IMG/VR virus record: IMGVR_UViG_2537561934_000012
Coordinates: 1-45,384 of that record
DNA from: a virus
Taxonomy: Duplodnaviria > Heunggongvirae > Uroviricota > Caudoviricetes
Strand: one strand, 5' to 3'
DNA: 45,384 nucleotides
Shown here piece after piece: positions 3,906-44,451 of the stretch; the first letter of the stretch is position 1; every line of letters begins with the position of its first letter. The notes under the pieces were generated by a model, which was given only the letters and a program-made list of their open reading frames with translations, was not told the DNA's origin and ran no database searches. The position numbers were made by a program, and so were the translations under genes.

Positions 3906-3985
3906 TTTGTTTTAACCTCATTACAGATTTAAGGGTGAACAAATCCCTGCCATTGCTGGCATATAAAAATGAAACCGGATATTAA

Positions 3986-4374: not shown

Positions 4375-4939
4375 TATCGCGTCCTCAACAATGAACTTTG
4401 TGATGCGGTGCCTGGTGCCTCCAGGTGACGTTAACCAGTTAACAATTAACGCCGGATACAGAGAACCCACCCATAAGAACCAATACGGAAGTCAACTGGC
4501 CTTTTTAACTGTTCCGCGTGCGCTGAGCCGCATTCACCGCATCACAAAATTCACTTTAAAAAAGGGCGGACATCAGCCAGCAATGAAAACTGATGCCGCC
4601 AAAAGGTAATCAACATGGGTTGTTGCAGCGGGGTTGTCACTCAGGCGTATGGTCAACCTGACAACCCGGTGTTATCTCGAGGAAAGGATAGCCTCGCCAT
4701 ACTTACCGCCGCGCCATTTCGCGGGTTGCCACAACCGGAAGCGCACGGTCGAATTAAATTTAACGACACCGTACAGTGAGACGAACTTCGCCGTGCGCTT
4801 TCGTGTTGTGCCCTGACTTTTCAGGGATATATCCTTTCAGTAAACTGTCAGTGCCGGATGCTCACCCGTGTCCGGCGCACGCACTCCACCTGACCCGTGG
4901 AGAACTCCTTAATTACCAACCATCAGGAGGGTGAAATTT

Positions 4940-5131
4940 ATGACACAAGAAGAAAAAGTAATGTTTCTTATGCGCCTGGCTGTGGAAACCTTTAACGCCC
5001 ATTGCCAGGTGTCCATTTCACCATCTCACGCCATTTCTCTTGCTACCGAGCAAATGGGGGAGATTGACGTCATTTACGATAAATTTGAAGCATTCCTGGA
5101 TAAGAAGCTTATGGCAGAGAAGCGTCAATAA
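4940..5131 (+). CDS. Hypothetical small protein (63 aa) on opposite strand to the early-left operon
   Basis: ATG at 4940 preceded by AGGAGG at 9-nt spacing (track start 4931 is an in-frame GTG). Convergent with and overlapping the 3' end of the 5109..5714 gene. Confidence 0.45.
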   Translation: MTQEEKVMFLMRLAVETFNAHCQVSISPSHAISLATEQMGEIDVIYDKFEAFLDKKLMAEKRQ

Positions 5132-5714
5132 TCCTCATTACCCATCGTAAATATACAGGAGTGGGCTTGACGTTGTGTTTTTCAAGCTCGCTCTTCATTA
5201 CTTCCTGCAACTTTGAGCTGATAATAAACAAATCAGGTTTATCGTTATTATTTTTATCAGCATCGTCTTTTTTTGTTTTCGACTCTTGTGGTGAATGTTC
5301 GAAAGTAACTTGCAGGGTATTATTTTTAGCGTCCGCAGAGCCTAAAGTATGTGCATATGGATGTGCTATTGTGCGCCCTCGCAGATTTGCATCATTTTCT
5401 AAATTCACTGAACGAAACAGGGCATCAACAAGGCTCTGTACAATGCAAAGGCAATCGAAGACTGTCGCTGTTTCTGTTTTGATTGATGAAAGAACATGGC
5501 CATTCAGGCAAACAGAAATTACCCGTTCATTAACATCGCTTTCCCGCTTTTGATTATCAGAACCATATAGCCCGGTAAACGCATCGCGCACATTACGAAC
5601 CATATTATCGATGGTTTCTTTTTTTGCGGATCCCGGTTTAATTTCCACCAGGCTATCGCTAAGTGTCGTTGCAGCAATTGTCTGGATTTCTTTTGGTAAA
5701 TCTTTAAATTCCAT
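5109..5714 (-). CDS. Hypothetical protein (201 aa), AT-rich accessory gene in early-left region
   Basis: Long ORF in visibly AT-rich DNA. No transmembrane segment or recognisable motif. C-terminal acidic/Lys/Asn-rich stretch. Confidence 0.5.
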   Translation of the reverse strand: MEFKDLPKEIQTIAATTLSDSLVEIKPGSAKKETIDNMVRNVRDAFTGLYGSDNQKRESDVNERVISVCLNGHVLSSIKTETATVFDCLCIVQSLVDALFRSVNLENDANLRGRTIAHPYAHTLGSADAKNNTLQVTFEHSPQESKTKKDDADKNNNDKPDLFIISSKLQEVMKSELEKHNVKPTPVYLRWVMRIIDASLP

Positions 5715-5736
5715 TATTAGCCTCGTTGGTCAGCTA

Positions 5737-5955
5737 TTAACGTGGGTATGTAACCATTCTGGCAATGCTTAATGCCGCTGCTTTTTCCAGCCTGGTGATA
5801 TCCTGCTCCAGAGCGGACAGATTTTCAGCCTGCTTAGCCCTGGCTTCATTGGCCCATTTCAGGTCCTGCGCTGCCATAATTTTCTGGCGCATCCACTCAT
5901 AAAGCTCATCATCGGTATAGTCTGGCGCGATGATGACGGGTTCTCGTTTCTGCAT
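5737..5955 (-). CDS. Hypothetical small protein (72 aa), coiled-coil-like
   Basis: ORF with GAGG Shine-Dalgarno upstream on the minus strand, in the early-left operon. Confidence 0.45.
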   Translation of the reverse strand: MQKREPVIIAPDYTDDELYEWMRQKIMAAQDLKWANEARAKQAENLSALEQDITRLEKAAALSIARMVTYPR

Positions 5956-5985
5956 ACTGAATTCCTCGCGGTGATGTTTCGCTTA

Positions 5986-6114
5986 TCAGCCGTTATATTT
6001 TGCCGAACTGGAAAGCGCCTGTTTAAACTCACTGAAGCTGAGAGCTTCTTCGCCTTCGGCAAGGCCTTCGAAGTATTCTTCGTAAGCCTTTTCCATGATT
6101 GCGTCGAAATCCAT
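5986..6114 (-). CDS. Hypothetical small protein (42 aa), below ORF-track threshold
   Basis: ATG preceded by a GGTGAG Shine-Dalgarno-like sequence on the minus strand. Tightly packed between the flanking genes. Acidic product MDFDAIMEKAYEEYFEGLAEGEEALSFSEFKQALSSSAKYNG. Confidence 0.3.
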   Translation of the reverse strand: MDFDAIMEKAYEEYFEGLAEGEEALSFSEFKQALSSSAKYNG

Positions 6115-6115
6115 A

Positions 6116-6271
6116 TCACTCACCTGAGTTTCTTTCCAGCCAGCGACGAGCGCCAGTTTCGGTTTTAAACGTTTTGCTTTTGGTATACGTCATCGCGGTG
6201 AATGTGCCGTCCTGGTTGGGAAACACGCCGTATACCAGAGATTCGTTGTTGCCAAGATCGATAGTATCCAT
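6116..6271 (-). CDS. Small early-left protein (51 aa), Rac YdaF-like
   Basis: Likely start MDTIDLGNNESL... with a GAGG Shine-Dalgarno upstream. Resembles the remembered 51-aa Rac YdaF. The track ORF extends to 6349. Confidence 0.45.
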   Translation of the reverse strand: MDTIDLGNNESLVYGVFPNQDGTFTAMTYTKSKTFKTETGARRWLERNSGE

Positions 6272-6439
6272 GCTGACCTCATTTCCCCTTAACGCCGGGG
6301 TAGCGGAACAAAAACCTGCTGCATAGTTAAAGTTGAACCCTGCCGTCATGTTCTTACGCCTCGGGCTGGCTACTTACCCCCTGACCACTGCCTGGTAACT
6401 CGAAGTATTGCCCTGCGTTCTGTGGGGTGGGGTGGGTTG

Positions 6440-6500
6440 GTATGCAATAAATCTAAAAGTATTTAGTTTTATAGTCAAGGGGAATCTAAATTAATTTAAA
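6440..6500 (-). promoter_or_regulatory. PL-like leftward promoter with OL-like operator half-sites
   Basis: On the minus strand: TTGACT (plus-strand 6473-6478), 17-nt spacer, TAGATT (plus-strand 6450-6455). Repeated AATCTAAA half-site motif also found in the OR region. Confidence 0.4.
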
Positions 6501-6524
6501 AAAAAGGTCGGTATAACCGACCTT
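6498..6524 (-). terminator. Rho-independent terminator downstream of the repressor gene
   Basis: On the minus strand: GGTCGG stem, 5-nt loop, CCGACC, followed by a run of 8 T. Confidence 0.55.
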
Positions 6525-6545: not shown

Positions 6546-7193
6546 TTATAGGTTGAACTGTACACCTTTTGCTACGGCAACAATTTTACACTCTGGCGTA
6601 AGCAAGGATGATTGATAGCGCGGATTGAGAGGGCTTAAATACACAAGTTTTCCATCAATAACTAATTTTTTTATAGTCATAGACGGTTCATTTGTAAGTG
6701 GATCTGGAACTATTACAGCGACAATACTGCCATTTTTATAACTTTCTCCTGGTCTTAGGATCACAGTGGCACCAACCGGGATACTCGGCGACCCTGAGGG
6801 GTTATGCATAGTGTCATCAGGCATTGAAACGGCAAAATCACCTTCCACTACATCAAAGAATGTGGTGATCCTATCGACATTTCCCATTGTTTTCTCTCCT
6901 TCTAAGATTAGGAAAGAAATCGCGTCACCCCACGAAAAGTAGGGGATCTTGGTGCCTGGATTGCTCTGCACAAAAGATAGTTCAGGAGACGATACTCCAT
7001 ACAGGAGATAGGACTCAGTAGTTCCTAATGCTTGAGCTAACTTACTTAGAGCTTTGCTGCCGGGTTCGTTTAGATCTTTCTCCCAGTACCCTATAGTAAC
7101 CCCAGTCACGCCTGAAAGCTTACCCAGTTCTACTTGGGTGAGTCCCTTATCTTTTCTGAGTTTCTTAAGCCTGATGCCAAGGCTTTCCATCAT
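6546..7193 (-). CDS. cI: CI-type phage repressor (HTH plus LexA/S24-like autocleavage domain)
   Basis: 215 aa. N-terminal HTH (LKKLRKDKGLTQVELGKLSGVTGVTIGYWEKD) and C-terminal S24-peptidase-like region. Divergent from the cro-like gene across an operator region. Confidence 0.85.
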   Translation of the reverse strand: MMESLGIRLKKLRKDKGLTQVELGKLSGVTGVTIGYWEKDLNEPGSKALSKLAQALGTTESYLLYGVSSPELSFVQSNPGTKIPYFSWGDAISFLILEGEKTMGNVDRITTFFDVVEGDFAVSMPDDTMHNPSGSPSIPVGATVILRPGESYKNGSIVAVIVPDPLTNEPSMTIKKLVIDGKLVYLSPLNPRYQSSLLTPECKIVAVAKGVQFNL

Positions 7194-9619: not shown

Positions 9620-9883
9620 ATGAAGAAGCGTTTTTCCGACGAACAGATCATCAGTATTCTCCGCGAAGCCGAAGCTGGGGTACCCGCCCGTGAACTCTGC
9701 CGCAAGCATGCCATTTCCGATGCCACGTTTTACACCTGGCGTAAGAAGTATGGCGGTATGGAGGTGCCTGAAGTTAAGCGCCTGAAGTCGCTTGAGGAAG
9801 AGAACACCAGACTCAAGAAGCTGCTTGCCGAAGCCATGCTGGATAAAGAGGCGCTTCAGGTGGCTCTTGGGCGAAAGTACTGA
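9620..9883 (+). CDS. IS3-family transposase OrfA (HTH and leucine-zipper-like region)
   Basis: 87 aa [20 protein letters not shown]..., typical of IS3-family OrfA proteins. Confidence 0.85.
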
Positions 9884-9906
9884 CGACAGACCAGAAGCGG
9901 GAAGCC

Positions 9907-10740
9907 GTGATGTTGATGTGTGATGCGACCGGTCTGTCGCAACGTCGTGCCTGCAGGCTTACAGGTTTATCCCTGTCGACCTGCCGCTATGAGGCTCACC
10001 GTCCGGCTGCTGATGCGCATTTATCAGGGCGCATCACTGAGCTGGCACTGGAGCGCAGGCGTTTTGGCTACCGTCGTATTTGGCAGTTGCTGCGCCGTGA
10101 AGGGCTTCATGTTAATCATAAGCGCGTGTACCGGCTTTATCACCTCAGTGGCCTGGGCGTAAAACGCAGAAGACGTCGTAAAGGGCTGGCAACAGAACGT
10201 CTGCCGCTGCTCCGTCCGGCGGCGCCCAATCTGACCTGGTCGATGGATTTCGTCATGGACGCACTTTCCACCGGTCGCAGGATCAAGTGTCTTACCTGCG
10301 TCGATGATTTCACAAAGGAATGCCTGACGGTCACTGTTGCCTTTGGGATTTCAGGCGTTCAGGTCACGCGTATTCTGGACAGCATTGCACTGTTTCGAGG
10401 CTATCCGGCGACGATAAGAACTGACCAGGGGCCGGAGTTCACTTGCCGTGCACTGGATCAATGGGCCTTTGAGCATGGTGTTGAGTTGCGCTTAATCCAG
10501 CCGGGCAAGCCAACGCAGAACGGATTTATTGAGAGCTTTAACGGACGATTTCGCGATGAATGTTTGAATGAGCACTGGTTCAGCGATATCGTTCATGCCA
10601 GGAAAATTATTAATGACTGGCGGCAGGATTATAACGAATGCCGCCCGCACTCCACGCTGAATTATCAGACACCGTCTGAATTTGCAGCGGGCTGGAGAAA
10701 GGGTCATTCTGAGAATGAAGATTCCGACGTTACTAACTGA
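9907..10740 (+). CDS. IS3-family transposase OrfB (DDE integrase core); expected to be made as an OrfAB -1 frameshift fusion
   Basis: DDE/rve-like core (...TDQGPEFTC...[32 protein letters not shown]...). Reading frame is -1 relative to OrfA. Confidence 0.85.
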
Positions 10741-11629: not shown

Positions 11630-12208
11630 ATGAGAGACATTGATGTAAGAAAGGCTGTGCATGCCAAGATTCTGAGAGATCATCATAAAGATCCTGACAC
11701 CCTAATCATTGATGAGTTTACGATGAATCTAGGGGCTAGCAGAGCTGATATAGCAGTGATCAATGGGCTTATACATGGTTATGAGTTGAAGAGCAAGAGT
11801 GATAACTTGCTCAGATTACCAGCGCAGGTGCAACATTACTCATCAGTGATGGATAAAGTAACTTTGGTTGTCTCTGATTGCCATCTTTATGATGCTTTAA
11901 GCATAGTTCCATCATGGTGGGGGATAAAGCAAGTTACGCAAGGTGCACGGCAAGGTATCCATTTAAAAACAATTCGAACTAGCAAGTTGAATCCACAAGT
12001 GGACAAACTTTCCTTAACAATGCTTCTTTGGAAAGATGAATTGCTTTCCCTATTAAGTGATGTAGGGGAGCTACAGAATTTGAAAAATAAACCTAAACGC
12101 GTCTTATGGTCAAAACTCGCCAATAGTATGGATGTTGGCGAGCTTCGTGAAGCTGTTCGAGTTAAACTTAAAGCCCGTAAAGAGTGGCGAGTTGCTCAAC
12201 AACCTTAG
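11630..12208 (+). CDS. PD-(D/E)xK-type predicted nuclease (192 aa), candidate defence component A
   Basis: Motif arrangement IIDEF ... RADIAVINGLIHGYELKSK (D, then E-x-K about 12 residues later) typical of restriction-endonuclease-fold proteins. AT-rich gene. Recalls the database family label sce7726 (from memory). Confidence 0.55.
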   Translation: MRDIDVRKAVHAKILRDHHKDPDTLIIDEFTMNLGASRADIAVINGLIHGYELKSKSDNLLRLPAQVQHYSSVMDKVTLVVSDCHLYDALSIVPSWWGIKQVTQGARQGIHLKTIRTSKLNPQVDKLSLTMLLWKDELLSLLSDVGELQNLKNKPKRVLWSKLANSMDVGELREAVRVKLKARKEWRVAQQP

Positions 12209-13265
12209 TTATGTGATGGTTTTGCCCAATCCTACGCCATACCTCTGGGCTACCAAATTTATAGTTACCAGAGGGATTGGCTTTGTAGGCTTGATACTCG
12301 TTTGCATAATATTCTATGTCTCTATCTCCCGCACAGAATGTAGGCCCTGAATATTCTCGATGAGCAAGAATATCCTCACTATGTTTACCATATTGTTCAT
12401 AACCAAAGCGATTAGCTACTCTTCCTCGAAATACCCAAAAGTCATTATCTCCAGAGTATCTGACGCTGGCAGATACGCTAGGGAATCGCGTCGAAAGCCT
12501 ATTAAAGTCGGGGTGCTGTACTCCATAATCACTATAAATCACATTTCTGGCAAGTTCTTTTCTATTCATTAAACTCTGCCATAAAATCCACTCGATTCGA
12601 GGTTGAGAATATAGACCAACAGAAATATCACTGAGATCTGTAGGAAATGAACCCCCAGAAAGAATCACTTTTCTGTATTCATTGAGGTGCGCCAGATTGT
12701 TTATCAATCCCATTGCCAAAGTATATAGTTCGCCGGAATTAAGTTTATCCTCGGTTAACTCATCTCTTAAGTCAATAATTATATCAATATTTGATAAAGG
12801 AATTCCCAGATGATTAATGTAATGCGTTATTAATTGTGGGTTAACCAGATCTAACGTGGTTAATCTCAAGCATATTTCATTCTGCATTAATTCATCAATC
12901 GCTCTTTTATAGTTAGATGGGCGAGTTGGTGAACTGACAGGAATAACTCTTATCCCCATATCTCTAACTTGATTAACCGCATTTATTATAGGGTAATGAT
13001 CTTCAGGAGAAATAAAATGCTCTTCAATTAATAATCCATCAATATAAACACCTTGCATATCTGAGCAAGATTTTGAGACTTTCTTTCCGAACTCTATAAG
13101 AGTCTCGTTATAACTCTTTAAGGCAATACCTGAATCAGGGTCAATTGGCACTGGTTCAATTTCGAGTAATGGCAAAATTTTTGATTTCTTTTCAATGGAT
13201 AGCTGCGATAAAGCTGATAACTCAGAACGTTTCGCTTTCAGAATAGGAATATATGAAATTGTCAT
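12168..13265 (-). CDS. Hypothetical protein (365 aa), candidate defence component B, convergent partner of the PD-(D/E)xK gene
   Basis: Long ORF in AT-rich DNA with an AAGG Shine-Dalgarno. Its 3' end overlaps the partner's 3' end by 41 bp on the opposite strand. Recalls the sce7725-type partner family (from memory). Confidence 0.55.
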   Translation of the reverse strand: MTISYIPILKAKRSELSALSQLSIEKKSKILPLLEIEPVPIDPDSGIALKSYNETLIEFGKKVSKSCSDMQGVYIDGLLIEEHFISPEDHYPIINAVNQVRDMGIRVIPVSSPTRPSNYKRAIDELMQNEICLRLTTLDLVNPQLITHYINHLGIPLSNIDIIIDLRDELTEDKLNSGELYTLAMGLINNLAHLNEYRKVILSGGSFPTDLSDISVGLYSQPRIEWILWQSLMNRKELARNVIYSDYGVQHPDFNRLSTRFPSVSASVRYSGDNDFWVFRGRVANRFGYEQYGKHSEDILAHREYSGPTFCAGDRDIEYYANEYQAYKANPSGNYKFGSPEVWRRIGQNHHITKVVEQLATLYGL

Positions 13266-13822
13266 GTTAATACCTTATACAGAATCAATTAACAATTAAT
13301 GGTTCTTCGGACATTGAAATTTATATCGCAAAAATTGGCAAACTCTCCTCGACTACTCACTTGTGGGTATCCTGGCGTAAAAGGAATGACTTGGCAATAC
13401 CCGGTGTGATCATAAGTCATTGAAAATGATCATTTTTATCAGTCTTTCTTCCATGATGAATGCTAATGCCATTTGATTTGTTGAGGTAAAAAGTGTTAAA
13501 AATCAAAACGATGTAATTGAAATGAACGTTCGGTAGCATTCACGCTTTAAATGTTTCTTTTGTGCTGATTGGATGAATTTTGGTCACTTATGATGAGAGA
13601 TGTTGCAGGAAAAGAAGTTGGCATTGATCTATTGGATAGTTAGAATTGCTGCGGGTGCTTGAGGCTATCTGCCTCAGGCATGAACACCAAAAGGCAGATA
13701 GAGAAAAGCCCCAGTTAACATTACGCGTCCTGCAAGACGCTTAACATTAATCTGAGGCCCAATCTATGTCTCACAAATGTAGGTTAGCCTCTTACGTGCC
13801 GAAAGGCAAGGAGAAGCAGGCT

Positions 13823-13978
13823 ATGAAGCAGCAAAAGGCGATGTTAATCGCCCTTATCGTCATCTGTTTAACCGTCATAGTGACGGCACTGGTAACGAGG
13901 AAAGACCTCTGCGAGGTACGAATCCGAACCGGCCAGACGGAGGTCGCTGTCTTCACAGCTTACGAACCTGAGGAGTAA
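13823..13978 (+). CDS. hokD: Hok/Gef-family type I toxin (51 aa), HokD/RelF-like
   Basis: Product MKQQKAMLIALIVICLTVIVTALVTRKDLCEVRIRTGQTEVAVFTAYEPEE matches the remembered HokD sequence. Single transmembrane helix. An in-frame upstream extension starts at 13766. Confidence 0.8.
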   Translation: MKQQKAMLIALIVICLTVIVTALVTRKDLCEVRIRTGQTEVAVFTAYEPEE

Positions 13979-15487: not shown

Positions 15488-15859
15488 ATGCGTATAGAGT
15501 TTGTTTTGTCTTACCCGCCGACGGTGAACACCTACTGGCGACGCCGTGGCAGCACATATTTTATCTCTGAGGAGGGAAAGCGTTATCGCCGGGCTGTGGC
15601 GCTTATTGTTCGCCAGCAGCGGCTGAAATTAAGGCTGTCCGGAAGGCTGGCGATAAAGGTGATTGCAGAGCCACCGGATAAGCGTCGTCGCGACCTGGAC
15701 AATATCCTGAAAGCACCGCTGGATGCGCTGACGCATGCGGGAGTGTTAATGGACGATGAGCAGTTTGATGAAATCAATATTGTGCGCGGTCAGCTCGTTC
15801 CTGGTGGTCGGCTGGGCGTGAAGATTTACGAAATTACAGGTGATAACGATGGCGCGTGA
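15488..15859 (+). CDS. rusA: RusA-type Holliday junction resolvase
   Basis: 123 aa. [12 protein letters not shown]...[29 protein letters not shown] matches the RusA pattern, including the conserved DxD and DD acidic residues. Confidence 0.8.
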
Positions 15860-16235
15860 TATTCAGCAGGTTATGGAGCGGTGGGGAGCATGGGCTGCAA
15901 ACAATCACGAAGATGTGTCATGGGAGTCAATAGCTGCTGGTTTTAAAGGATTAATCCCGCCGAAAGTGAAATCACGCCCTCAGTGTTCTGATGATGATGC
16001 AATGATAATTTGTGGCTGCATGGCCCGGTTGAACAAGAAAAATCAGGATTTGCACGATTTGTTGGTGGATTATTACGTAGGTGGAATGACTTTTATGGGG
16101 CTGGCACGAAAGCATGGGTGTTCGGATACCTGTATTGGCAAGCGCCTGCAGAAAGCGGAAGGGGTTATTGATGGCATGTTGATGATGCTTGATATCCGAC
16201 TGGAGATGGACAGATACGTAGAACGAATCATGTAG
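15840..16235 (+). CDS. quuD: Late-gene antiterminator Q (phage-82 / QuuD-like)
   Basis: 131 aa. [23 protein letters not shown]...[19 protein letters not shown]...[26 protein letters not shown] closely matches the remembered DLP12 QuuD. Confidence 0.8.
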
Positions 16236-16239: not shown

Positions 16240-16356
16240 TTGACCAGACACATTGTCCGGGGCTATATTTCCGACGCAACCGCAAAATCGGTTGTCGGGA
16301 TTAGCACCCCGGATGTTTACGGAGCGATATGAGGCGCGCCCGCGTCTTTTTTCATA
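16240..16356 (+). promoter_or_regulatory. Putative late promoter (PR-prime-like) with downstream Q-responsive terminator-like hairpin
   Basis: TTGACC (16240-16245), 18-nt spacer, TATATT (16264-16269) just after Q. GC-rich element followed by T6 at about 16331-16352. Confidence 0.35.
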
Positions 16357-16516
16357 TCGTTTGCACAGTCATATTCGCGATTTATGGCGGGCTGTGTGGG
16401 GGAGCCGAAAGGCTCGCCGGTTTCCGTACCCGGTAGTGCTAACCCCGCACAGTTCGCCACCACGATGATTAGCACCTGACGGTGGCGATAATGTCCAAAT
16501 GTACGGAGTTATCGTT

Positions 16517-17104
16517 ATGACCACTCAGATTTCTGTCGAAACTCTTTCCCCAATTACACACAACCAAATTCCCGTTATCACTACCGAGTTACTGGCACAG
16601 CTTTACTGTACCGATATCAACAACATCAAAGTAAATTACACCCGTAATTCCGAGCGTTTTGTTGAGGGTAAACACTTTTTCAAGGTTGTTGGTGATGAGT
16701 TGAAAAATTTGCGGGTTACTTTAAGTAACTCACAAAATTTGCAACCATCTTTAAGAGGGTTACAAATTCCCCCGAAAACCCGCTCCCTTATCCTCTGGAC
16801 AGAACGCGGAGCAGCCCGTCATGCCAAAATGCTGGAAACCGATCAGGCGTGGGATGTGTTCGAAAAACTGGAAGACTGTTATTTCAGCCAGAAACAGCCA
16901 CCAGCAGCACAAAACTCCCCAACACCAAATGATGGATGCGCATTGCTGATCCACTTCGATAAACATGGTCAGGTCGAATTCACGGAAAAAGTCCCCGCCG
17001 ATGCGATGGTATGCACTCTGGAACGGTTTAAATTTTATCTGGAGCAATACGGCTGGATCGTTGCCCGTAAAGAGCAACTGGTGGAACGACTGATGAGGCT
17101 TTAA
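16517..17104 (+). CDS. ORF6N-domain-like protein (antirepressor/DNA-binding family), copy 1
   Basis: Start MTTQISVETL preceded by GGAG. N-terminal region (ITTELLAQLY...NIKVNYTRNSERFVEGKHFFKV) resembles the ORF6N pattern. An inverted paralogue lies at 44689..45252. Confidence 0.55.
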   Translation: MTTQISVETLSPITHNQIPVITTELLAQLYCTDINNIKVNYTRNSERFVEGKHFFKVVGDELKNLRVTLSNSQNLQPSLRGLQIPPKTRSLILWTERGAARHAKMLETDQAWDVFEKLEDCYFSQKQPPAAQNSPTPNDGCALLIHFDKHGQVEFTEKVPADAMVCTLERFKFYLEQYGWIVARKEQLVERLMRL

Positions 17105-17180
17105 AAATTTCCCCCGAACGCTTTACGATCGTAAAAAGTTGAATATCCTGTTAAGAGTGGTTACTACGCCACACAGCTTA

Positions 17181-17206
17181 AACCCGCCGCCGAGCGGGTT
17201 TTTTTG
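17181..17206 (+). terminator. Rho-independent terminator
   Basis: AACCCGC, 6-nt loop, GCGGGTT, followed by a run of 7 T. Confidence 0.55.
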
Positions 17207-17401
17207 TGTCCGGAAAGTGGTGCAGTACGTTAAATGCGCATGTTATTTTTCTAAAATTCATGAATAATAAAAATACATACATATATTTACGAATATTGAC
17301 ATGATTTTCTATTGAAAAAAGAGCCGGCATTATTAATATCCATCTTCGGTTCCGAATGGGATATAAAGCGCGGTCATTTTTATTTCTCTTGAGGAACCAA
17401 T

Positions 17402-17477
<76 letters not shown>

Positions 17478-17480
17478 TAT

Positions 17481-17555
<75 letters not shown>

Positions 17556-18973: not shown

Positions 18974-19519
18974 ATGAAGTCGAAAGATGAAATTTTTGAC
19001 GAAGTTCTGGGAAAAGAGGGCGGTTACGTCAATCACCAGGATGATAAAGGCGGACCGACAAAATGGGGTATTACTGAAAAAGTTGCCCGTGCGCACGGAT
19101 ACCAGGGCGATATGCGTGATCTGACGCGCGGACAGGCGCTGGAAATACTCGAGGCGGACTACTGGTATGGACCACGTTTTGACCAGGTGGCAGCGTTATC
19201 CCCTGATATTGCCGCAGAGTTGTGTGATACGGGCGTCAACATGGGGCCAGCCGTGGCGTCAAAAATGCTTCAACGCTGGCTGAACGTTTTCAACCTGCGC
19301 GGGAAACTGTATCCGGATATGGATGCAGACGGACGTATCGGGCCGCGTACTCTTAATGCATTACGGGTATATCTGAAAAATCGTGGCAGGGATGGAGAGC
19401 TGGTAATGCTGACCGCACTGAACTGTACGCAGGGTGACCGCTATCTGGAGCTGGCAGAGAAACGGGAGGCTAACGAGTCGTTTGTTTACGGCTGGATGAA
19501 AGAGCGCGTAGCAGTTTAA
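18974..19519 (+). CDS. Endolysin, glycoside hydrolase family 108-type muramidase with C-terminal peptidoglycan-binding domain
   Basis: N-terminal EGGYVNHQDDKGGPTKWGIT motif typical of GH108. C-terminal region resembles PG_binding_3. Confidence 0.7.
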   Translation: MKSKDEIFDEVLGKEGGYVNHQDDKGGPTKWGITEKVARAHGYQGDMRDLTRGQALEILEADYWYGPRFDQVAALSPDIAAELCDTGVNMGPAVASKMLQRWLNVFNLRGKLYPDMDADGRIGPRTLNALRVYLKNRGRDGELVMLTALNCTQGDRYLELAEKREANESFVYGWMKERVAV

Positions 19520-19615
19520 AAACTGACACTGAAGTGCTGAACACCCTCAACTCATGCAGGCTCTTTTCTGGGGCTACGATGAGCAAAAGTAAGGGGCATA
19601 GCATTAGATAGCAAA

Positions 19616-19650
19616 AACCCCGGCTGCGGTAACAGTCCGGGGTTTTCTGT
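19616..19650 (+). terminator. Rho-independent terminator after the endolysin
   Basis: AACCCCGG, 13-nt loop, CCGGGGTT, followed by a T-rich tract. Confidence 0.5.
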
Positions 19651-19679
19651 TTCTGGCCTTGGGTAAGGCAAAGGAGAAC

Positions 19680-19862
19680 ATGAGGAAGTATAAACTAATT
19701 CTGTTGAGGTTGACTATGAAAAACGGCCTTGAATTGAAAGCGCCCGTAACTGATGACATCAGCAGAGCGGTGGCTTTTGCCATTAAGTGGGTGGCTGTCG
19801 GTATCGCTGTGTCTCCGATGCTGTATGGGATGGCAAAATTGATCATTGCTGTGAAATCGTAA
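19680..19862 (+). CDS. Hypothetical small membrane protein (60 aa)
   Basis: AAGGAG Shine-Dalgarno and a C-terminal hydrophobic segment. Confidence 0.3.
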   Translation: MRKYKLILLRLTMKNGLELKAPVTDDISRAVAFAIKWVAVGIAVSPMLYGMAKLIIAVKS

Positions 19863-24002: not shown

Positions 24003-25570
24003 ACGGGGAACTGGTGGATATTCATGGGCAGCCTTTACGGCAAAGCATGGGATATTCTGGTGGTGGTTCCGGGTTCGGTGGGCAAATGGCAGAATGGCTG
24101 CCTGCACCGGAAAGTGCCGACGTGGCGCTCTTACCTTCCATTCATCTGGGTAACGCCCGCGCGGATGATCTGGTCCGTAACAACGGTATTGCATCGAATG
24201 CAGTGGAAATTCATAAGGATCATATTGTCGGGCACATGTTTCGTCTGAGTTACCGTCCCAACTGGCGCTGGCTGGGGATGTCGGAAGCAGATTCACATGC
24301 TTTTATTGAAGATGTTGAGGCGGCGTGGATGGAATACTGCGATCCGGTGTTTGGTATGATGGATGTGGAAGGGCGTCGTTCGTTTACCGAATTCATTCGT
24401 GAAGGGGTGGGGGTCCATACGTTTAACGGTGAAATTTTTGTCCAGCCCGTATGGGATGCGGAATCCACGTCATTATTCCGGACGAAATTCAAAACCATCA
24501 GCCCGAAGCGTGTCAGTACACCCGGTTATGGTACCAGCGATCGTTTTATGCGTGCCGGGGTGGAAATAAACCGACACGGAAAAGCGCTGGCCTACCATGT
24601 TCAGGATGATGACTGGCCCGGCTACGGTGTCAGTAAATGGACACGAATTACGGCAACACTGCCTTCCGGACGACCGGGAATGATCCATGTGTTTCAGCCA
24701 CAGGAAGACGGGCAGACCCGCGGGGCCAACCAGTTTTATTCTGTAATGGAGCGTCTCAAGATGCTCGACACACTGCAGGCCACGCAACTGCAGTCGGCGG
24801 TGGTTCGCGCCATGTATGCCGCCACGATTGAATCCACACTGGATTCGGAAAAAGCGTTTGAATATATCGCCGGGGTGGGAGATGGAGGTAAAAATCCCCT
24901 GAACACCATCATGAAAGGCTACGCGCGTTATTACGCCACCAATACGGTAAAACTGGGCGGGGTCCGTATTCCGCATCTTTACCCGGGAGATTCACTGAAT
25001 CTGCAGACAGCCCAGAATGCGGATAATGGTTTTTCTGAACTGGAAAAGGCGCTGTTACGTTACATTGCTGCCGGACTGGGTGTGTCGTATGAGCAGCTTT
25101 CCCGTGATTATTCACAGGTCAGTTATTCCAGTGCCAGGGCATCCGCCAATGAGTCGTGGCGGTATTTTATGGGAAAACGAAAATTTGTGGCCAGTCGCCT
25201 GGCGTCACAGATGTTTGCCTGCTGGCTGGAGGAAGCCCTTATTCGTGGTGTGATCCGTCCGCCGAAATCCCGTTTCTCATTCTGGGAGGCCCGTTCCGGG
25301 TGGTGCCGTGCCGAGTGGATTGGTGCCGGTCGCATGGCGATTGATGGCCTTAAGGAAGTGCAGGAAGCGGTGATGCGCATTGAAGGCGGCCTGAGTACAT
25401 ACGAGAAAGAGCTGGCCCTGATGGGGGATGACTATCAGGAGATTTTCCGCCAGCAGCTACGGGAAACTCAGGAGCGACAGGCTGCCGGTCTTCCGCGTCC
25501 GGTCTGGATAAAGGACGCGTTTCAACAGCAGATCCGACAGACAACGGGAGAAAAAGGCGATGCGCTGTAA
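23999..25570 (+). CDS. B: Portal protein B
   Basis: 523 aa. ...GNARADDLVRNNG..., ...DGQTRGANQFYSVMERLKMLDTLQ..., ...GLGVSYEQLSR... match lambda gpB. Confidence 0.9.
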   Translation: MNGELVDIHGQPLRQSMGYSGGGSGFGGQMAEWLPAPESADVALLPSIHLGNARADDLVRNNGIASNAVEIHKDHIVGHMFRLSYRPNWRWLGMSEADSHAFIEDVEAAWMEYCDPVFGMMDVEGRRSFTEFIREGVGVHTFNGEIFVQPVWDAESTSLFRTKFKTISPKRVSTPGYGTSDRFMRAGVEINRHGKALAYHVQDDDWPGYGVSKWTRITATLPSGRPGMIHVFQPQEDGQTRGANQFYSVMERLKMLDTLQATQLQSAVVRAMYAATIESTLDSEKAFEYIAGVGDGGKNPLNTIMKGYARYYATNTVKLGGVRIPHLYPGDSLNLQTAQNADNGFSELEKALLRYIAAGLGVSYEQLSRDYSQVSYSSARASANESWRYFMGKRKFVASRLASQMFACWLEEALIRGVIRPPKSRFSFWEARSGWCRAEWIGAGRMAIDGLKEVQEAVMRIEGGLSTYEKELALMGDDYQEIFRQQLRETQERQAAGLPRPVWIKDAFQQQIRQTTGEKGDAL

Positions 25571-27176
25571 TTTATCACATATTGCCGCGATGGCATTTAA
25601 TGAGCCGCTTTTACTGGAACCCGCCTATGCGCGGGTTTTCTTTTGCGCACTGGGTAAGGAGATGGGGGCGGGCAGCCTTGCCGTTCCGCAGCAGGCCGTT
25701 CAGCTTGATGCCGATGGTATGCAGCTGGAGGTTACCGATTATATGACTGGTGGTCCGCGTCCGGTAAAGAGTTACCAGGTGAAAAATGGTATTGCCATTC
25801 TGCCGGTGAGCGGCACGCTGGTACATAAAATGGGTACCCTGCAGCCATATTCCGGTATGACCAGTTATGACGGTCTGACTGCCCGTCTTAAGTCAGCGGT
25901 GAACGACCCGGATGTACGCGGCATTTTACTGGATATCGACAGTCCGGGCGGTCAGGCTGCCGGGGCGTTTGACTGTGCTGACATGATTTACCGTCTGCGG
26001 GAACAGAAGCCCGTGTGGGCGCTGTGTAATGACATGGCCTGTTCAGCCGCCATGTTGCTGGCGGCGGCCTGTACGCGTCGGCTGGTCACGCAGACGGCAA
26101 AAATTGGTTCGATTGGTGTGATGATGGCGCACACCAGTTACGAGAAACAACTGGCACAGGAAGGCGTGGATATCACGCTGATTTACTCCGGGCAGCACAA
26201 GGTTGACGGCAACAGTATTCAGGCGTTGCCGACAGGTGTGCGTGCGGATTTTCAGCGCCGTATTGATGATGCCCGCCGGATGTTTGTCGACAAGGTGGCA
26301 CTTTATACGGGGCTGAGTTCAGAGGTGGTGATGAATACCGAGGCTGCCGTTTATGACGGTCAGGCAGGCATTGATACAGGCCTGGCTGATCAACTGATTA
26401 ATGCTGCAGATGCCGTTGATGTAATGGTTTCTGCTCTGAACGACTCTGTTACACAGGAGAATACGATGACACCAAAAAATCTCACCGTTGCTGAAGCGGT
26501 GTCCCAGGAAAATCAGCGCGTGATGGGGATCCTGAATTGTCAGGAGGCGAAAGGACGCGAAAAACTGGCGCAGATGCTGGCAGGTCAGCAGGGAATGTCA
26601 GTTGAGCAGGCAAAAACATTACTGGCAGCGGCACCGGCAACCGGCACGGCAAGTTCCGGCGATCAAATTATTGCGTTGCCGGAAGCAAAAGGACGTGAAC
26701 AACTGGCACGGACGCTGGCTGAACAGCCGGGAATGACGGTGGAGCAGGCGAAAACGTTACTGGCAGCGGCACCGGCAACCGGCACGGCAAGTTCCGGCGA
26801 TCAAATTATTGCGTTGCCGGAAGCAAAAGGACGTGAACAACTGGCACGGACGCTGGCTGAACAGCCGGGAATGACGGTGGAGCAGGCGAAAACGTTACTG
26901 GCAGCGGCACCGGCAACCGGCACGGCAAGTTCCGGCGATCAAATTATTGCGTTGCCGGAAGCAAAAGGACGCGAAAAACTGGCACAGGCGCTGGCTGAAC
27001 AACCGGGAATGACAGTGGAGCAGGCGAAAACGCTGCTGGCAGCTGCGCCATCAGTATCGCAACCGTCACAGGTAACACTTTTTGAGCGCTTCATGGCACA
27101 GCATGCCGCCAGTGCCGTTTCCGGTGGCGGAACTGCCGGGAACGGGGAAAAAGAACTGCTGATGAGTATGCCGTAA
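25560..27176 (+). CDS. C: Head protease / scaffold C (S49-type) with expanded C-terminal Nu3-like scaffold repeats
   Basis: 538 aa. N-terminal S49 ClpP-like region matches lambda gpC. C-terminal region carries four tandem 46-aa repeats. Confidence 0.85.
   Translation: MRCNLSHIAAMAFNEPLLLEPAYARVFFCALGKEMGAGSLAVPQQAVQLDADGMQLEVTDYMTGGPRPVKSYQVKNGIAILPVSGTLVHKMGTLQPYSGMTSYDGLTARLKSAVNDPDVRGILLDIDSPGGQAAGAFDCADMIYRLREQKPVWALCNDMACSAAMLLAAACTRRLVTQTAKIGSIGVMMAHTSYEKQLAQEGVDITLIYSGQHKVDGNSIQALPTGVRADFQRRIDDARRMFVDKVALYTGLSSEVVMNTEAAVYDGQAGIDTGLADQLINAADAVDVMVSALNDSVTQENTMTPKNLTVAEAVSQENQRVMGILNCQEAKGREKLAQMLAGQQGMSVEQAKTLLAAAPATGTASSGDQIIALPEAKGREQLARTLAEQPGMTVEQAKTLLAAAPATGTASSGDQIIALPEAKGREQLARTLAEQPGMTVEQAKTLLAAAPATGTASSGDQIIALPEAKGREKLAQALAEQPGMTVEQAKTLLAAAPSVSQPSQVTLFERFMAQHAASAVSGGGTAGNGEKELLMSMP
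26544..27060 (+). repeat. In-frame tandem repeat, 138-bp unit, about 4 copies (two central copies identical)
   Basis: Unit starts at about 26544, 26681, 26819 and 26957. Encodes EAKGRE(Q/K)LA..LAEQPGMTVEQAKTLLAAAPATGTASSGDQIIALP. Confidence 0.85.
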
Positions 27177-27186
27177 GCGTGGATCC

Positions 27187-27552
27187 GTGATTCAGATAAA
27201 TCAGGAGACTGAGAAAATGATTAAAACCACCACAGAAAAGCGCGCGGACGGGCGCATTTTTGCCGGAAGCGATCCGGTATATACCGCAACAGGTACCAGT
27301 GGTATCAGTGTTGCCACGCCTTCACTGACGCCACTGATGCTGGATGACGCCAGCGGAAAACTGGTGGCATGGGATGGTCAGAAAGCCGGAACGGCTGTGG
27401 GGGTGCTGGTACTGGCGCTGGCCGGGACCGAGCCCACACTGACGTACTACAAAAGTGGTACGTTTGCCACCGAATCGCTGGTCTGGCCGGATTCGGTGGA
27501 TGCGGTGAAAAAAGCCAACGCGTTTGTGGGAAGTGCCATCAGCCACGCCTGA
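27187..27552 (+). CDS. D: Head decoration protein D
   Basis: ...TPLMLDDASGKLVAWDG...YKSGTF... matches lambda gpD. Confidence 0.8.
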   Translation: MIQINQETEKMIKTTTEKRADGRIFAGSDPVYTATGTSGISVATPSLTPLMLDDASGKLVAWDGQKAGTAVGVLVLALAGTEPTLTYYKSGTFATESLVWPDSVDAVKKANAFVGSAISHA

Positions 27553-27621
27553 TGGTGAAATGATTAACTGAAAAAACGGGTCGTGATGCGGCCCGTTTGT
27601 GTTTTTAAAGGAAAGTCAATT

Positions 27622-28650
27622 ATGGGGTTATTTACCACGCGTCAGTTGCTCGGCTACACCGAGCAGAAAGTGAAATTCCGTGCGCTGTTTCTGGAGCTGT
27701 TTTTTCGTCGTACGGTCACTTTCCATACTCAGGAAGTGATGCTGGATAAAATCACTGGAAAAACACCGGTTGCGGCATATGTGTCTCCGGTTGTGTCAGG
27801 TAAGGTACTGCGCAGTCGTGGTGGTGAAACCCGCGTGTTACGCCCCGGCTATGTTAAACCAAAACACCGGCTGGATTATCAGCAGGCGGTGGAGCGTCTT
27901 CCGGGGGAAGATCCGGCCCGTCTTAATGACCCGGCCTACCGTCGCCTGCGTATTCTGACTGACAACCTGAAACAGGAAGAGCAGGCGATTGTGCAGGTGG
28001 AAGAAATGCAGGCGGTCAGCGCTGTTCTGCAGGGTAAGTACACCATGAGCGGTGAACAGTTTGAGACGGTGGAAGTGGATTTTGGACGTTCTGCCGCCAA
28101 TAACATAACGCAGGCAGATGGACGCGAATGGTCAAAACAGAATGTTGACACCTTTGATCCGACGCATGATCTGGATGCGTACTGCGATTTTGCTTCCGGT
28201 ACCATCAATATTGCGATTATGGACGGTACTGTCTGGCGTATGCTGAACGGTTTTAAGCTGTTTCGTGAAAAACTGGATACCCGCCGTGGCTCAAAATCTG
28301 AACTGGAAACCGCGCTGAAAGATCTGGGTTCCGTGGTTTCTTTTAAAGGTTATTACGGTGATCTGGCCATCATGGTGGCGAAAACAACGTATGTTGATGA
28401 AAGCGGGGATGAGCAGCGCTATCTGCCGGAAGGCACACTGATTCTTGGAAACACTCAGGTGGATGGTGTCCGTTGTTATGGCGCAATCCAGGATAACCAG
28501 GCGTTGAGTGAAGGGATCACCTCTGCAATTCGTTATCCGAAACACTGGTTAGAGGTGGGGGACCCGGGGTGCGAATATACCATGACGCAATCTGCGCCGT
28601 TGATGGTGTTGCCGGATCCGGACGCGTTTGTGGTAGTTAAGGTGAAATAA
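27622..28650 (+). CDS. E: Major capsid protein E
   Basis: ...TTRQLLGYTEQKVKF...LFLELFF...PKHRLDY...QVEEMQAVSAVLQGKYTM...SAPLMVLPDPD... match lambda gpE. Confidence 0.9.
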   Translation: MGLFTTRQLLGYTEQKVKFRALFLELFFRRTVTFHTQEVMLDKITGKTPVAAYVSPVVSGKVLRSRGGETRVLRPGYVKPKHRLDYQQAVERLPGEDPARLNDPAYRRLRILTDNLKQEEQAIVQVEEMQAVSAVLQGKYTMSGEQFETVEVDFGRSAANNITQADGREWSKQNVDTFDPTHDLDAYCDFASGTINIAIMDGTVWRMLNGFKLFREKLDTRRGSKSELETALKDLGSVVSFKGYYGDLAIMVAKTTYVDESGDEQRYLPEGTLILGNTQVDGVRCYGAIQDNQALSEGITSAIRYPKHWLEVGDPGCEYTMTQSAPLMVLPDPDAFVVVKVK

Positions 28651-28697
28651 GGTCAGGTGGGATATTCCCGCCTTTTTCTTTATCGCACAGGAGAGAT

Positions 28698-29081: not shown

Positions 29082-29094
29082 ATGTGGTGGAAAG

Positions 29095-30432: not shown

Positions 30433-30451
30433 ATAAATAATGTAAGGAGGA

Positions 30452-31225: not shown

Positions 31226-31285
31226 CAGGGCCATGTTTATCATCAGCCCCGGTTCGCCGGGGTTTTTTATTCGGGGAGAAGAGAA

Positions 31286-44408: not shown

Positions 44409-44451
44409 TGAATAAGCCGCCATGAGCGGTTTTTTTGTATCTGAAAAATGA

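Follow-up and report, generated by a model that had tools for sequence, protein, structure and literature searches.

In phages P1 and P7, the c4 RNA blocks translation of ant at the ribosome-binding site, and this control underlies their heteroimmunity (PMC12197685). In Gifsy-1, anrP is transcribed by read-through from PisrK and stays untranslated unless the short IsrK RNA is present in trans (139-fold with it); its product raises the mRNA of the antQ operon and induces the prophage (PMC4825925). C4 is unmentioned in the IsrK paper (PMC4825925), and a 2025 review handles IsrK and C4 as separate subjects. The CI RNA of P4, with its seqA and seqC targets, and the satellite 'immunity RNAs in Bro zones' (PMC10111431) represent a class that the Rfam C4 and isrK profiles detect. 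In Stx phages, the nin region holds an ant cassette (VT2-Sakai ant, 933W family), and mapping in the Sakai phages placed the late promoter pR' 258 nt ahead of tR' (PMC7547250).

We analysed a window of 45,384 nucleotides, i.e., positions 129530-174913 of its own contig, AQEW01000007.1 (L064; assembly GCA_000354735.2). The contig was recovered through its DUF4376 protein; the tail-fibre protein gave no exact match. An earlier note had described an inverted repeat at 16383-17104 and 44689-45384, with an ORF6N-like gene in each copy. Alignment confirmed it as three collinear blocks (16384-16473 with 45384-45295, 89% identity; 16480-16738 with 45289-45031, 86%; 16772-17100 with 45021-44693, 92%). 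Two checks that the note had proposed, extending the sequence rightwards and aligning the copies at the nucleotide level, showed that the homology runs 144 nt beyond the window end and defined arms of 865 nt (16240-17104) and 840 nt (window-equivalent 45528-44689). Over this full length, the arms are 87.7% identical with 25 gap columns (12% diverged); several blocks are 98-100% identical, and the longest identical runs are of 112, 63, 62, 51, and 37 bp. The homology starts at a -35 hexamer and ends precisely at both stop codons, with no relation between the 3' flanks. The figures given for the proteins (about 90% identity and an 8-codon indel) and for the bracketed region (about 27.6 kb) also hold: 169 of 187 aligned residues are identical (90.4%) with one 8-residue gap, and the intervening segment, 17105-44688, spans 27,584 bp and contains tRNA, lysis, terminase, head, tail, and tail-fibre genes. 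The two ORF6N genes show a dN/dS of 0.11 at an overall dS of 0.50, which indicates purifying selection on both; a single synonymous change separates their first 30 codons, and dS reaches saturation over codons 31-74. The leader that the note had reported as shared does recur in both copies, but its description missed that this leader holds known regulatory RNAs (C4 and IsrK/c4-a1b1) and that each arm starts with its own promoter. Read from the sequence, each arm is a complete transcription unit, a cassette with its own predicted promoter.

The left cassette (+ strand) directly follows the antiterminator gene Q (15840-16235, + strand; Q21/Q933W family; PF06530, E 7e-52), whose product is 80-83% identical to the Q proteins of 933W, VT2-Sakai, and BP-4795. 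The Q stop codon lies 4 nt upstream of the -35 hexamer of a sigma-70-like promoter (16240-16269; TTGACC, 18 nt, TATATT; 10 of 12 consensus matches), and the promoter architecture TTGAC-N12-CCGGGGCTATATT is common to all the cassettes surveyed. The promoter is followed by an IsrK-like short RNA (16276-16352; Rfam isrK, 71.2 bits for a gathering score of 50), which coincides with a c4-a1b1 target motif (16263-16315) that scores 45.6 bits, slightly below the Rfam gathering score of 46.7, and whose b1/a1 complementarity is exact. This RNA carries the sites b1 UUAGCAC (16301-16307) and a1 UACGGAG (16318-16324), and the terminator scan predicts an intrinsic terminator at its end (hairpin 16331-16348 and a T run). 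Then comes the C4 antisense RNA (16380-16464; 78 bits for a gathering score of 45), with the loops a' UCCGUAC (16423-16429) and b' GUGCUAA (16436-16442). Both are exactly complementary to a target region at 16469-16508 (+ strand), which comprises b2 UUAGCAC (16469-16475) and a2 GUACGGAG (16501-16508); the a2 site, GUACGGA(G), overlaps the Shine-Dalgarno sequence GGAG (16505-16508), 8 nt ahead of the ATG. The ORF6N-family antirepressor-like gene (16517-17104, 195 aa; PF10543 at residues 12-105) begins 53 nt past C4.

A 933W-type late promoter block (pR'; 17122-17215, + strand) stands after the left cassette and within the bracketed segment. It contains TTTACG (17122-17127), 16 nt, and TATCCT (17144-17149), followed by a hairpin terminator with a T run (hairpin 17180-17201, terminator scan). 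The block shares 81% identity over 94 nt (E 2e-21) with VT2-Sakai sequence that overlaps and follows the end of Q, and about 350 phage records have it at the end of Q, whereas here the left cassette intervenes and puts 886 nt between the two. In comparison with the pR'-StxS-tR' leader of 933W and Sakai (Sy et al. 2020, PMC7547250), the match covers the promoter and the first hairpin and stops past it, so that the StxS sRNA part is absent from this locus. The first genes of the segment past the block are tRNA-Thr(TGT) and tRNA-Gly(TCC) (17402-17555, + strand; ARAGORN and Rfam).

The right cassette (- strand) repeats this organisation, and the predicted promoters and terminator hairpins are in register in both cassettes. 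Its promoter (-35 TTGACA at window-equivalent 45523-45528, -10 at 45499-45504; 11 of 12 consensus matches) and its IsrK (window-equivalent 45416-45492) lie off the window; in L004, the isrK profile scores 75.2 bits and c4-a1b1 48.6 bits (gathering score 46.7). The window edge cuts the 5' end of the right C4 (45304-45384), which scores 68.5 bits as cut and 77.6 bits at full length in L004 (gathering score 45) and has the loops a' UCCGUAC (45339-45345) and b' ACGCCAA (45326-45332). The target region (45261-45299) comprises b2 UUGGCGU (45293-45299) and a2/Shine-Dalgarno UACGGAG (45261-45267), at coordinates converted from L004 9954-9960 and 9986-9992. An over-long ORF call of 231 aa has its ATG at position 45384 and swallows the C4 RNA; the corrected gene is an ORF6N-family antirepressor-like gene of 187 aa (44689-45252; PF10543), the last of the prophage. 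Two hairpin terminators (44414-44482, from L004 10771-10804 and 10821-10839; terminator scan) separate it from the convergent DUF4376 gene at the end of the late operon. The exact right protein is found in at least 15 contigs and adjoins yciE in all eight places listed; where the contigs reach, its gene is convergent with the DUF4376 and tail-fibre genes, except in one that has an IS1 fragment instead.

Beyond the right cassette, the source contig has a 3' remnant of ompW within about 330 bp, and then yciE, yciF, yciG, and trpA. A 33-bp att core, identical at attL and attR, lies at about window-equivalent 45713-45745, some 185 bp from the right -35 hexamer; its duplicate lies next to the integrase, which abuts full-length ompW at the other end of the prophage. 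The same right-end layout is present in at least 13 assemblies, and the right copy is 100% identical across several unrelated ones. Both cassettes belong to one lambdoid E. coli prophage, whose integration site is the 3' end of ompW.

The order of elements in these cassettes is that of antQ-isrK-orf45-anrP in Gifsy-1 (Hershko-Shalev et al. 2016, PMC4825925), with which they align base for base. There too, the promoter (TTGACA-N12-CCGGGGCTATATT) directly adjoins the stop codon of Q, as in the left cassette; IsrK ends at a terminator of its own; the place where the paper drew 'orf45' is taken by a C4-type RNA; and a tRNA and the lysis genes come after the cassette. The Gifsy-1 ORF6N protein, AnrP (STM2616), shares its first 29 residues with the window proteins and is 58% identical overall to the left one (104/178) and 59% to the right one (103/175). 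Its cassette has the b' class of the right copy. Gifsy-1 differs in having a single cassette, a Q82-type Q, and CGGUGAU as its a' loop, to which its a1 and a2 correspond. The Q-adjacent position is shared by the left copy, 4 nt past the Q stop codon, but not by the right one, which lies beside attR. The orf45 frame is not kept: in the left copy, the frame from 16384 stops at 16477-16479, and in the right copy it reads through, in frame, to ORF6N and so yields the 231-aa call. The comparison identifies the 'IsrK' of Gifsy-1 as the a1b1 target mimic of the P1-type C4 system and 'orf45' as the C4 RNA. We considered Gifsy gfoA as a precedent for the position at a prophage end and rejected it; its paper puts gfoA beside dinI, downstream of replication genes.

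The likeness to the immI operon of P1 and P7 (c4-icd-ant), whose type of C4 antisense module corresponds to Rfam RF01695 plus RF03163, lies in the C4 fold (78 and 77.6 bits), in the upstream a1b1 mimic, in the downstream target pair that covers the first ORF's ribosome-binding site, and in loop sequences that set specificity classes, as in the heteroimmunity of P1 and P7. Unlike immI, the window cassettes lack icd, encode a protein of the ORF6N type and not a P1-type Ant, and have an intrinsic terminator between a1b1 and C4; their host is a lambdoid prophage, with two heterospecific copies in one genome. With the P4-type systems they would share an RNA processed from a leader that pairs with repeated target sites beside Bro-network genes (PMC10111431), but P4 CI acts by premature transcription termination of its own operon and has no ORF6N antirepressor. 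The ant cassette of the Stx phages is the same promoter-IsrK-C4-ant module, its leader and the first (5') half of its gene being 72-79% identical to the window cassettes at the nucleotide level. It differs in its position, after ninE and upstream of Q, and in the C-terminal half of the protein, and the Stx phages checked have one cassette per genome. The module is thus an ordinary one, of a known portable phage type, and its arrangement in this prophage is somewhat unusual.

We think it likely that the arms are two alleles of one portable, RNA-gated, antirepressor-like cassette in one prophage, with no inversion device. Each would consist, in order, of a constitutive sigma-70 promoter, IsrK as a terminated a1b1 mimic, C4, the b2/a2 sites over the ribosome-binding site, and the ORF6N gene. 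The left allele separates Q from the 933W-type late promoter, and the right one, pointing inward, lies between the terminator of the late operon and attR. Each cassette stands at a module border and points into the late region, which would account for the inverted orientation. By analogy with P1/P7 immI and with IsrK-AnrP of Gifsy-1, read-through transcripts would supply C4, whose a' and b' loops would bind a2 and b2, respectively, and keep ORF6N from being translated; short IsrK in excess, which has a1 and b1, would compete for C4 and turn translation on; and the ORF6N protein would then counteract a phage repressor. Homology predicts RNA pairing, action in trans, and antirepressor activity in this prophage. 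A repeat that was unexplained can now be annotated as a regulatory unit.

The predicted specificity of the two RNAs differs. The a' loop is identical in the left and right copies, whereas the b' loops differ (GUGCUAA and ACGCCAA), and both target sites, b1 and b2, change to match, with b2 complementary to b' at 7 of 7 positions in each copy. The computed local b':b2 pairing energies are -9.0 and -10.3 kcal/mol for the cognate pairs and -4.9 and -3.3 kcal/mol for the cross pairs (left b2 has -9.0 with its own b' and -3.3 with that of the right copy). Duplex and cofold energies computed for the whole molecules discriminate only weakly, being dominated by the stems and by the a' loop that both copies have; local b' pairing alone tells cognate pairs from cross pairs. 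The shared a' and the different b', with matching b1 and b2, suggest that the alleles are largely separate switches. All three b' differences between the alleles are transitions, which predicts asymmetric pairing: the left C4 would wobble-pair with the right targets, and the right C4 would mismatch the left ones. Covariation across 21 unique leaders is consistent with the pairing: b':b1 is perfect in 20 and b':b2 in 19, against averages of 8.5 and 8.2 in shuffled leaders (none of 10,000 shuffles equalled the observed values, a test that overstates independence since the leaders are related sequences). Among relatives there are five classes of b' and three of a', and the targets match the loop in every class. 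A second lineage, represented by STEC308, has the same two-cassette layout, with a right copy that has different a' and b' loops. The cassettes of a prophage are of unlike classes in both independent lineages compared, by b' only in the window and by a' and b' in STEC308. L001 and L002 at first suggested a fusion of a P2-like prophage with a lambdoid remnant; STEC308 and C012 show each to be one ompW prophage that combines a lambda-like head with a contractile tail.

We regard it as improbable that the two heterospecific cassettes are a selected design linking one prophage to two separate RNA 'channels' with co-resident prophages. If they were, all cassettes of one class in co-resident prophages would be repressed by the C4 and derepressed by the IsrK of that class, and a prophage of two classes could sense or trigger two sets of neighbours. 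There would be a one-way hierarchy, with the left C4 reaching both cassettes and the right C4 only its own. The prophages of a polylysogen, including Stx phages with the same cassette, could in this way coordinate or insulate their induction.

An alternative for the protein is that the cassette is RNA-gated and that its product is not an antirepressor but possibly a DNA-binding regulator or a Bro/KilA-N-network factor of superinfection exclusion or defence. The ORF6N assignment made in the earlier note stands, PF10543 being matched in both copies and the only Pfam match, and ORF6N is a KilA-N-like DNA-binding domain. In the structure search, the C-terminal 90 residues were without a solved relative, and they have no Pfam family; a search of defence-system profiles gave weak matches to the candidate families PDC-S05. 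The CI-like repressor of the prophage (6546-7193) carries a LexA-like S24 cleavage domain and thus appears self-cleavable, so that an antirepressor is not obviously needed for the induction of the prophage itself, and proteins of the Bro network exchange domains and functions (PMC10111431). We nevertheless judge this alternative unlikely. Experiments exist for a single homologue, AnrP, which induces Gifsy-1 and increases transcription of the repressed antQ operon (PMC4825925), and each window protein aligns along its whole length with phrog_2379 'anti-repressor' (E 3e-90 for the left and 4e-90 for the right; an annotation, not an assay). Homology to AnrP and the PHROG annotation together suggest that the ORF6N proteins are antirepressor-like. 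The origin of the right copy was also in question. The earlier note had raised the possibility that it starts an adjacent prophage, and the window alone could not decide, as the arm ran off its edge; the cassettes of other phages are, moreover, normally beside Q or in the nin region. The chance that it comes from a separate prophage or remnant is now practically nil, given that the ompW remnant and the host genes from yciE to trpA lie directly beyond it with no neighbouring prophage, that the att core is this close to its promoter, and that at least 13 assemblies have this layout. There is little more to recommend a recent in-place inverted duplication without separate function, or a decaying right copy. 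The near-identical first 30 codons and the blocks of 98-100% identity would fit such an origin, but a dS of 0.50 that is saturated at codons 31-74 is that of a mosaic, not of a uniform young divergence. The low dN/dS, the 11/12 promoter, the intact IsrK and C4 with perfect three-way matches between loop and targets, and the identity of the right copy in unrelated assemblies argue against decay, and right-type coding sequence is also found at Q-proximal sites of other phages. We consider this explanation very improbable.

The same low standing applies to the idea that the repeat is a recombination switch, in which a RecA-dependent crossover would flip the 27.6-kb late region and alter late-gene control; we hold it to be quite improbable. 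Long inverted repeats are able to recombine, these have identical runs of up to 112 bp, and cassette alleles do recombine: in the right-end cassette of L008, about 55 nt from b' to b2 are of the left type and are bounded by identical blocks, i.e., one gene-conversion tract. The arms, of 840-865 nt and 12% diverged, are nonetheless unlike the short crossover sites of the Gin/Cin/Pin type, and no resolvase or invertase families were found among the genes called on L011, L003, and L064 (a screen of window 6517-27104 and 34854 to the end, outside the stretches 1-6516 and 27105-34853 with early-left and tail genes). Neither predicted inversion junction occurs in any of 5,426 complete E. coli genomes, a search of low power, as this exact right end is itself missing from all the complete genomes. 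No inversion isomers were found, every informative contig and STEC308 being in parental order. L036, L057, and L058, which have a left-class leader and right-type coding region after Q, were examined as inversion crossovers; the sequence downstream is the parental tRNA/lysis sequence, and they are mosaics. The earlier note proposed that recombination would invert the late region relative to Q and the late promoter, which the position of the pR' block does not support. Q is a diffusible protein, and the block is the DNA site at which it acts. Since the block is itself inside the segment, the promoter, the Q-loading site, and the late genes would all turn over together, with Q acting in trans, and inversion would not uncouple the late genes from their promoter. 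The flipped layout would mirror the present one, with one cassette upstream of pR' and one convergent with the operon end, which predicts no functional change. Nothing suggests that the cassettes work as an inversion switch.

The presence of a cassette between Q and the late promoter in this prophage family matters for predicting the control of late genes and toxins from gene order. It was tempting to take the promoter of the left cassette for pR', as it abuts Q, but the homology of the Q933W-linked block to 17122-17215 contradicts this. The 11-nt spacer patch AGACACATTGT is found only downstream of this Q (12 of 12 cassettes), but we set it aside since these 12 cassettes are close relatives. 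The same type of cassette promoter also occurs after DUF1133 Q-like genes, after ninE, and after DUF551 genes.

The inverted repeat that the earlier note placed at 16383-17104 and 44689-45384 is real. A repeat finder recovers three collinear inverted arm pairs with 86-92% complementarity (16384-16473 with 45295-45384, 16480-16738 with 45031-45289, and 16772-17100 with 44693-45021), and nucleotide alignment of the arms, a check proposed in that note, agrees and sets the edges of homology exactly at the two ORF6N stop codons (17104 and 44689), beyond which the 3' flanks of the genes are unrelated to each other. The description of the products as ORF6N proteins about 90% identical, with an indel of roughly 8 codons, was equally accurate: PF10543 is found in both ORFs, 169 of the 187 aligned residues are the same (90.4%), there is a single 8-residue gap, and the nucleotide alignment has a 24-nt insertion in the left copy. 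The exact left protein is found on contig AQEW01000007.1 (GCA_000354735.2) in a locus 100% identical to window 6517-27104, and a DUF4376 protein led to the other end of this contig, of which the window represents positions 129530-174913. Extending the sequence to the right, as also proposed, lengthens the right arm by 144 nt past the window end, over which homology to the left arm continues up to the -35 hexamer. The complete arms (left, 16240-17104, 865 nt; right, window-equivalent 45528-44689, 840 nt) share 87.7% identity and include unbroken matches of 112, 63, 62, 51 and 37 bp. The window ends, at 45384, on the ATG of a predicted ORF of 231 aa (44689-45384, reverse strand), which sets its right end. 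The first 44 codons of this ORF cross the C4 RNA and its target region, and in the left copy the same frame is broken by a 1-nt indel, with a stop at 16477-16479. The ORF is an over-call, and the true start is likely the ATG at 45252 (187 aa), matching the annotation of RefSeq relatives.

The right copy does not mark the start of an adjacent prophage, as had been suggested. Beyond it, the source contig continues into a 40-residue OmpW fragment, then yciE, yciF, yciG and trpA, a layout found in all contigs with the exact right protein among the matches listed and also in related complete genomes. The integrase gene occupies window 1-1131, with full-length ompW 45 bp beyond. Because the 3' end of ompW is duplicated at both junctions (129 bp, 79% identity, ending in an identical 33-bp core) and the -35 of the right cassette lies about 185 bp from this att core, both copies belong to a single prophage in ompW, whose last gene is the right copy. 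Outside the window, at the att junctions, the 11-mer AGTTTTGCAGA occurs twice beside the integrase end (5137-5160 of the integrase-end locus, L017) with a third copy lying between the att core and the promoter of the right cassette (9652-9662 of L004, which holds the full right cassette); these copies are candidate integrase arm-type sites.

Each arm contains, in register, three RNA families of Rfam: c4-a1b1 (RF03163; left 45.6 bits, just under the gathering score of 46.7, right 48.6 bits), isrK (RF01394; 71 and 75 bits) and the C4 antisense RNA (RF01695; 78 and 77.6 bits). They are served by a sigma-70-like promoter matching the consensus at 10/12 positions on the left (TTGACC-18-TATATT) and 11/12 on the right (TTGACA-18-TATATT). 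The IsrK terminator hairpin lies 3' of the promoter, and further hairpin terminators lie 3' of each ORF6N gene. Since the parts are complete from promoter to terminator, each arm is, judging by its sequence, a complete and separately bounded transcription unit. The C4 loop a' (UCCGUAC) is complementary to UACGGAG in IsrK (a1) and to GUACGGAG (a2), just 5' of the start codon and overlapping the Shine-Dalgarno GGAG, while loop b' is complementary to one 7-mer in IsrK (b1) and another just 3' of C4 (b2). The full length of both proteins is covered by matches to phrog_2379 ("anti-repressor"); their similarity to candidate defence families is weak and at the domain level, and a search of solved structures found no relative. 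This anatomy and these boundaries are observed directly. From two experimentally studied relatives and the covariation of loops and targets, we infer that C4 would block the ORF6N ribosome-binding site, IsrK would serve as a C4 decoy and the ORF6N protein would oppose a repressor.

The two cassettes differ in b' (GUGCUAA on the left vs ACGCCAA on the right), and in each both targets match their own loop (UUAGCAC and UUGGCGU, respectively). A survey of 40 viral contigs and other loci gave 21 unique leaders with all three sites; b' pairs 7/7 with b1 in 20 of them and with b2 in 19. When b' was shuffled among leaders, the means were 8.5 (b1) and 8.2 (b2), the maximum was 16, and the observed counts were reached in none of 10,000 shuffles, a result that is not a strict probability as the leaders are related to each other. 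Nearly identical leaders from the same genomic context change all three sites together. Four b' classes occur with the a' loop UCCGUAC, and a' itself varies, with matched a1 and a2, in Gifsy-1 and in the right-end cassette of STEC308. Local pairing is stronger for cognate than for cross combinations at b2 (-9.0 and -10.3 vs -4.9 and -3.3 kcal/mol) and at b1 (-16.2 and -18.4 vs -12.2 and -7.8 kcal/mol). As all three left/right differences in b' are transitions, cross-pairing is predicted to be asymmetric: the left C4 would form G-U pairs with the right targets, and the right C4 would meet A-C mismatches on the left targets. The att-proximal cassette of STEC308 (NZ_CP091020.1, locus positions 19026-19850) has the promoter and spacer of the window's right copy, a fifth b' class (AGACCAA/UUGGUCU) and a third a' class (CCUUUUU/AAAAAGG).

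This type of module is already known from Gifsy-1, from P1/P7 immI and from published associations of C4 and isrK with Bro genes. The antQ-isrK-orf45-anrP region of Gifsy-1 aligns with both cassettes element for element, including the promoter abutting the Q stop codon; "orf45" occupies the position where Rfam places C4, and AnrP (STM2616) is 58-59% identical to the two window proteins. In Gifsy-1, PisrK reads through the IsrK terminator to transcribe anrP, which is untranslated unless short IsrK is given in trans (139-fold activation), and AnrP raises antQ operon mRNA and induces the prophage; the paper does not mention C4 or P1 (PMC4825925). P1/P7 immI is built in the same way: there, c4 RNA stops ant translation at the ribosome-binding site, the basis of heteroimmunity (PMC12197685). 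C4 and isrK profiles pick up relatives of the P4 CI RNA and its seqA target beside Bro-network genes (PMC10111431), and both RNAs adjoin a Bro-family gene in APSE phages (PMC7313666). Some antirepressors act on other prophages (PMC3121763), and the ORF6N protein may do so too, because the repressor of this prophage carries an S24 domain for self-cleavage. What appears to be undescribed is a late unit bordered on both sides by cassettes of different specificity. In Stx phages, the IsrK-C4 cassette is closely followed by a further ant-like gene with an sRNA-Xcc1 family RNA in front of it (L072 23773-23856; L073 37214-37297), an arrangement that may form another RNA-gated antirepressor unit; in APSE phages, sRNA-Xcc1 is likewise associated with an ORF6N gene (PMC7313666).

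Recombination between the copies had been proposed to turn the late region relative to the late promoter. This is not supported, as a 933W-type pR' block lies inside the bracketed segment, after the left ORF6N gene. Q is 80-83% identical to that of 933W and VT2-Sakai, and window 17122-17215, just 3' of the left ORF6N stop codon, matches VT2-Sakai sequence that spans the end of Q and continues beyond it (81% identity over 94 nt, E 2e-21); about 350 phage records contain the block, at a position where it overlaps the end of Q as annotated. The pR' start of Sakai phages was mapped 258 nt upstream of tR' (Sy et al., PMC7547250). Because this distance fits, we infer that pR' is TTTACG-N16-TATCAT in VT2-Sakai and TTTACG (17122-17127)-N16-TATCCT (17144-17149) in the window; the Q-binding element of the Q21/Q933W family lies within -40 to -1 of pR' (10.1101/651190). 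Given the homology of 17122-17215 to the VT2-Sakai block, the left cassette is inserted between Q and the late promoter on which it acts, leaving the promoter within the bracketed segment. Inversion is predicted to flip promoter, Q-loading site and late genes as one unit, and because this would recreate the current layout in mirror image, no regulatory effect is expected. The promoter's position is more decisive against the inversion idea than our search for isomers, in which none of the records from 5,426 complete Escherichia coli genomes covered at least 80% of either predicted junction; the highest coverages (63% and 58%) come from parental pieces, and the power of the search is limited by the absence of the exact right end from all these genomes. 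All informative contigs have the parental order, and the gene calls for window 6517-27104 and 34854 to the end show no invertase. Three apparent hybrids were rejected as inversion products, their downstream sequence being parental.

The origin of the copies can be weighed from their divergence. The whole-gene dN/dS of the ORF6N genes is 0.11 (dS 0.50), with one synonymous difference in codons 1-30 and saturated synonymous sites in codons 31-74. Such a mosaic is what two different alleles of a mobile module, homogenised in patches, would show; a recent duplication in place does not fit it. Cassettes follow this Q (PF06530), ninE (in Stx phages), a DUF551 gene or, at a distance of 4 nt, a DUF1133 Q-like gene, or they lie at the att-proximal end; each setting comes with its own patch in the promoter spacer, and other phages carry right-type coding sequence next to Q as well. 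Three reference phages were examined over their whole length and have a single cassette apiece. The att-proximal copy is an accessory module, because a related prophage (C012) lacks the right-end cassette. In the complete genome of STEC308, a related prophage in ompW, which has a contractile-tail module, repeats the inverted layout of two cassettes; these differ from each other at both a' and b', so that copies are heterospecific in both two-copy lineages (2/2). The two-copy layout may also simply reflect a mobile module inserted at two module boundaries. Recombination between alleles does occur: the right-end cassette of L008 (GCA_003577555.1) carries a left-type tract of ~55 nt, from b' to b2, between identical blocks of 62 and 112 bp, while b1 stays of the old class; the donor may be another prophage. 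In this natural recombinant (9900-9990), C4 still fits the RBS-proximal target and pairs with its own IsrK only via three G-U wobbles, which makes it of use for probing the role of b1.

Several other features accompany these loci. A perfect 14-bp palindrome, TTTACGATCGTAAA (17122-17135), overlaps the -35 of the pR' block, is kept in VT2-Sakai and is a candidate Q-binding element or other operator. In phage ev017 (NC_049948.1/LR597643.1, about 45068-46732), ~1.66 kb separate the Q gene from the pR' block, which suggests that accessory modules have entered repeatedly at this junction. A promoter-like TTGAAA-16-TAATAT just 5' of tRNA-Thr and tRNA-Gly (17312-17555) has a parallel in a Sakai phage, whose tRNAs were mapped to a promoter of their own between tR' and stx2 (PMC7547250). 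An IS3-family element (9620-10740) with an IS1222-type frameshift element (9850-9967, 156 bits, Rfam) lies in the early/replication region, where a related prophage (L012) has different genes; the insertion may have disabled the prophage. In the nin region (11630-13265), a P4 cII-like gene (PF26915) and a "Beta_protein" gene on the reverse strand (PF14350, 365 aa) overlap tail-to-tail; the pair may be accessory or defence genes. A hok/sok toxin-antitoxin pair occupies 13653-13978 (sok RNA 13653-13828, 121.7 bits, with an adjoining Hok/Gef ORF). Finally, a 231-nt unit is repeated in three overlapping copies (26543-27049; 138-nt period, 89-93% identity) within the S49 peptidase/scaffold gene (25560-27176), whose length varies among relatives.
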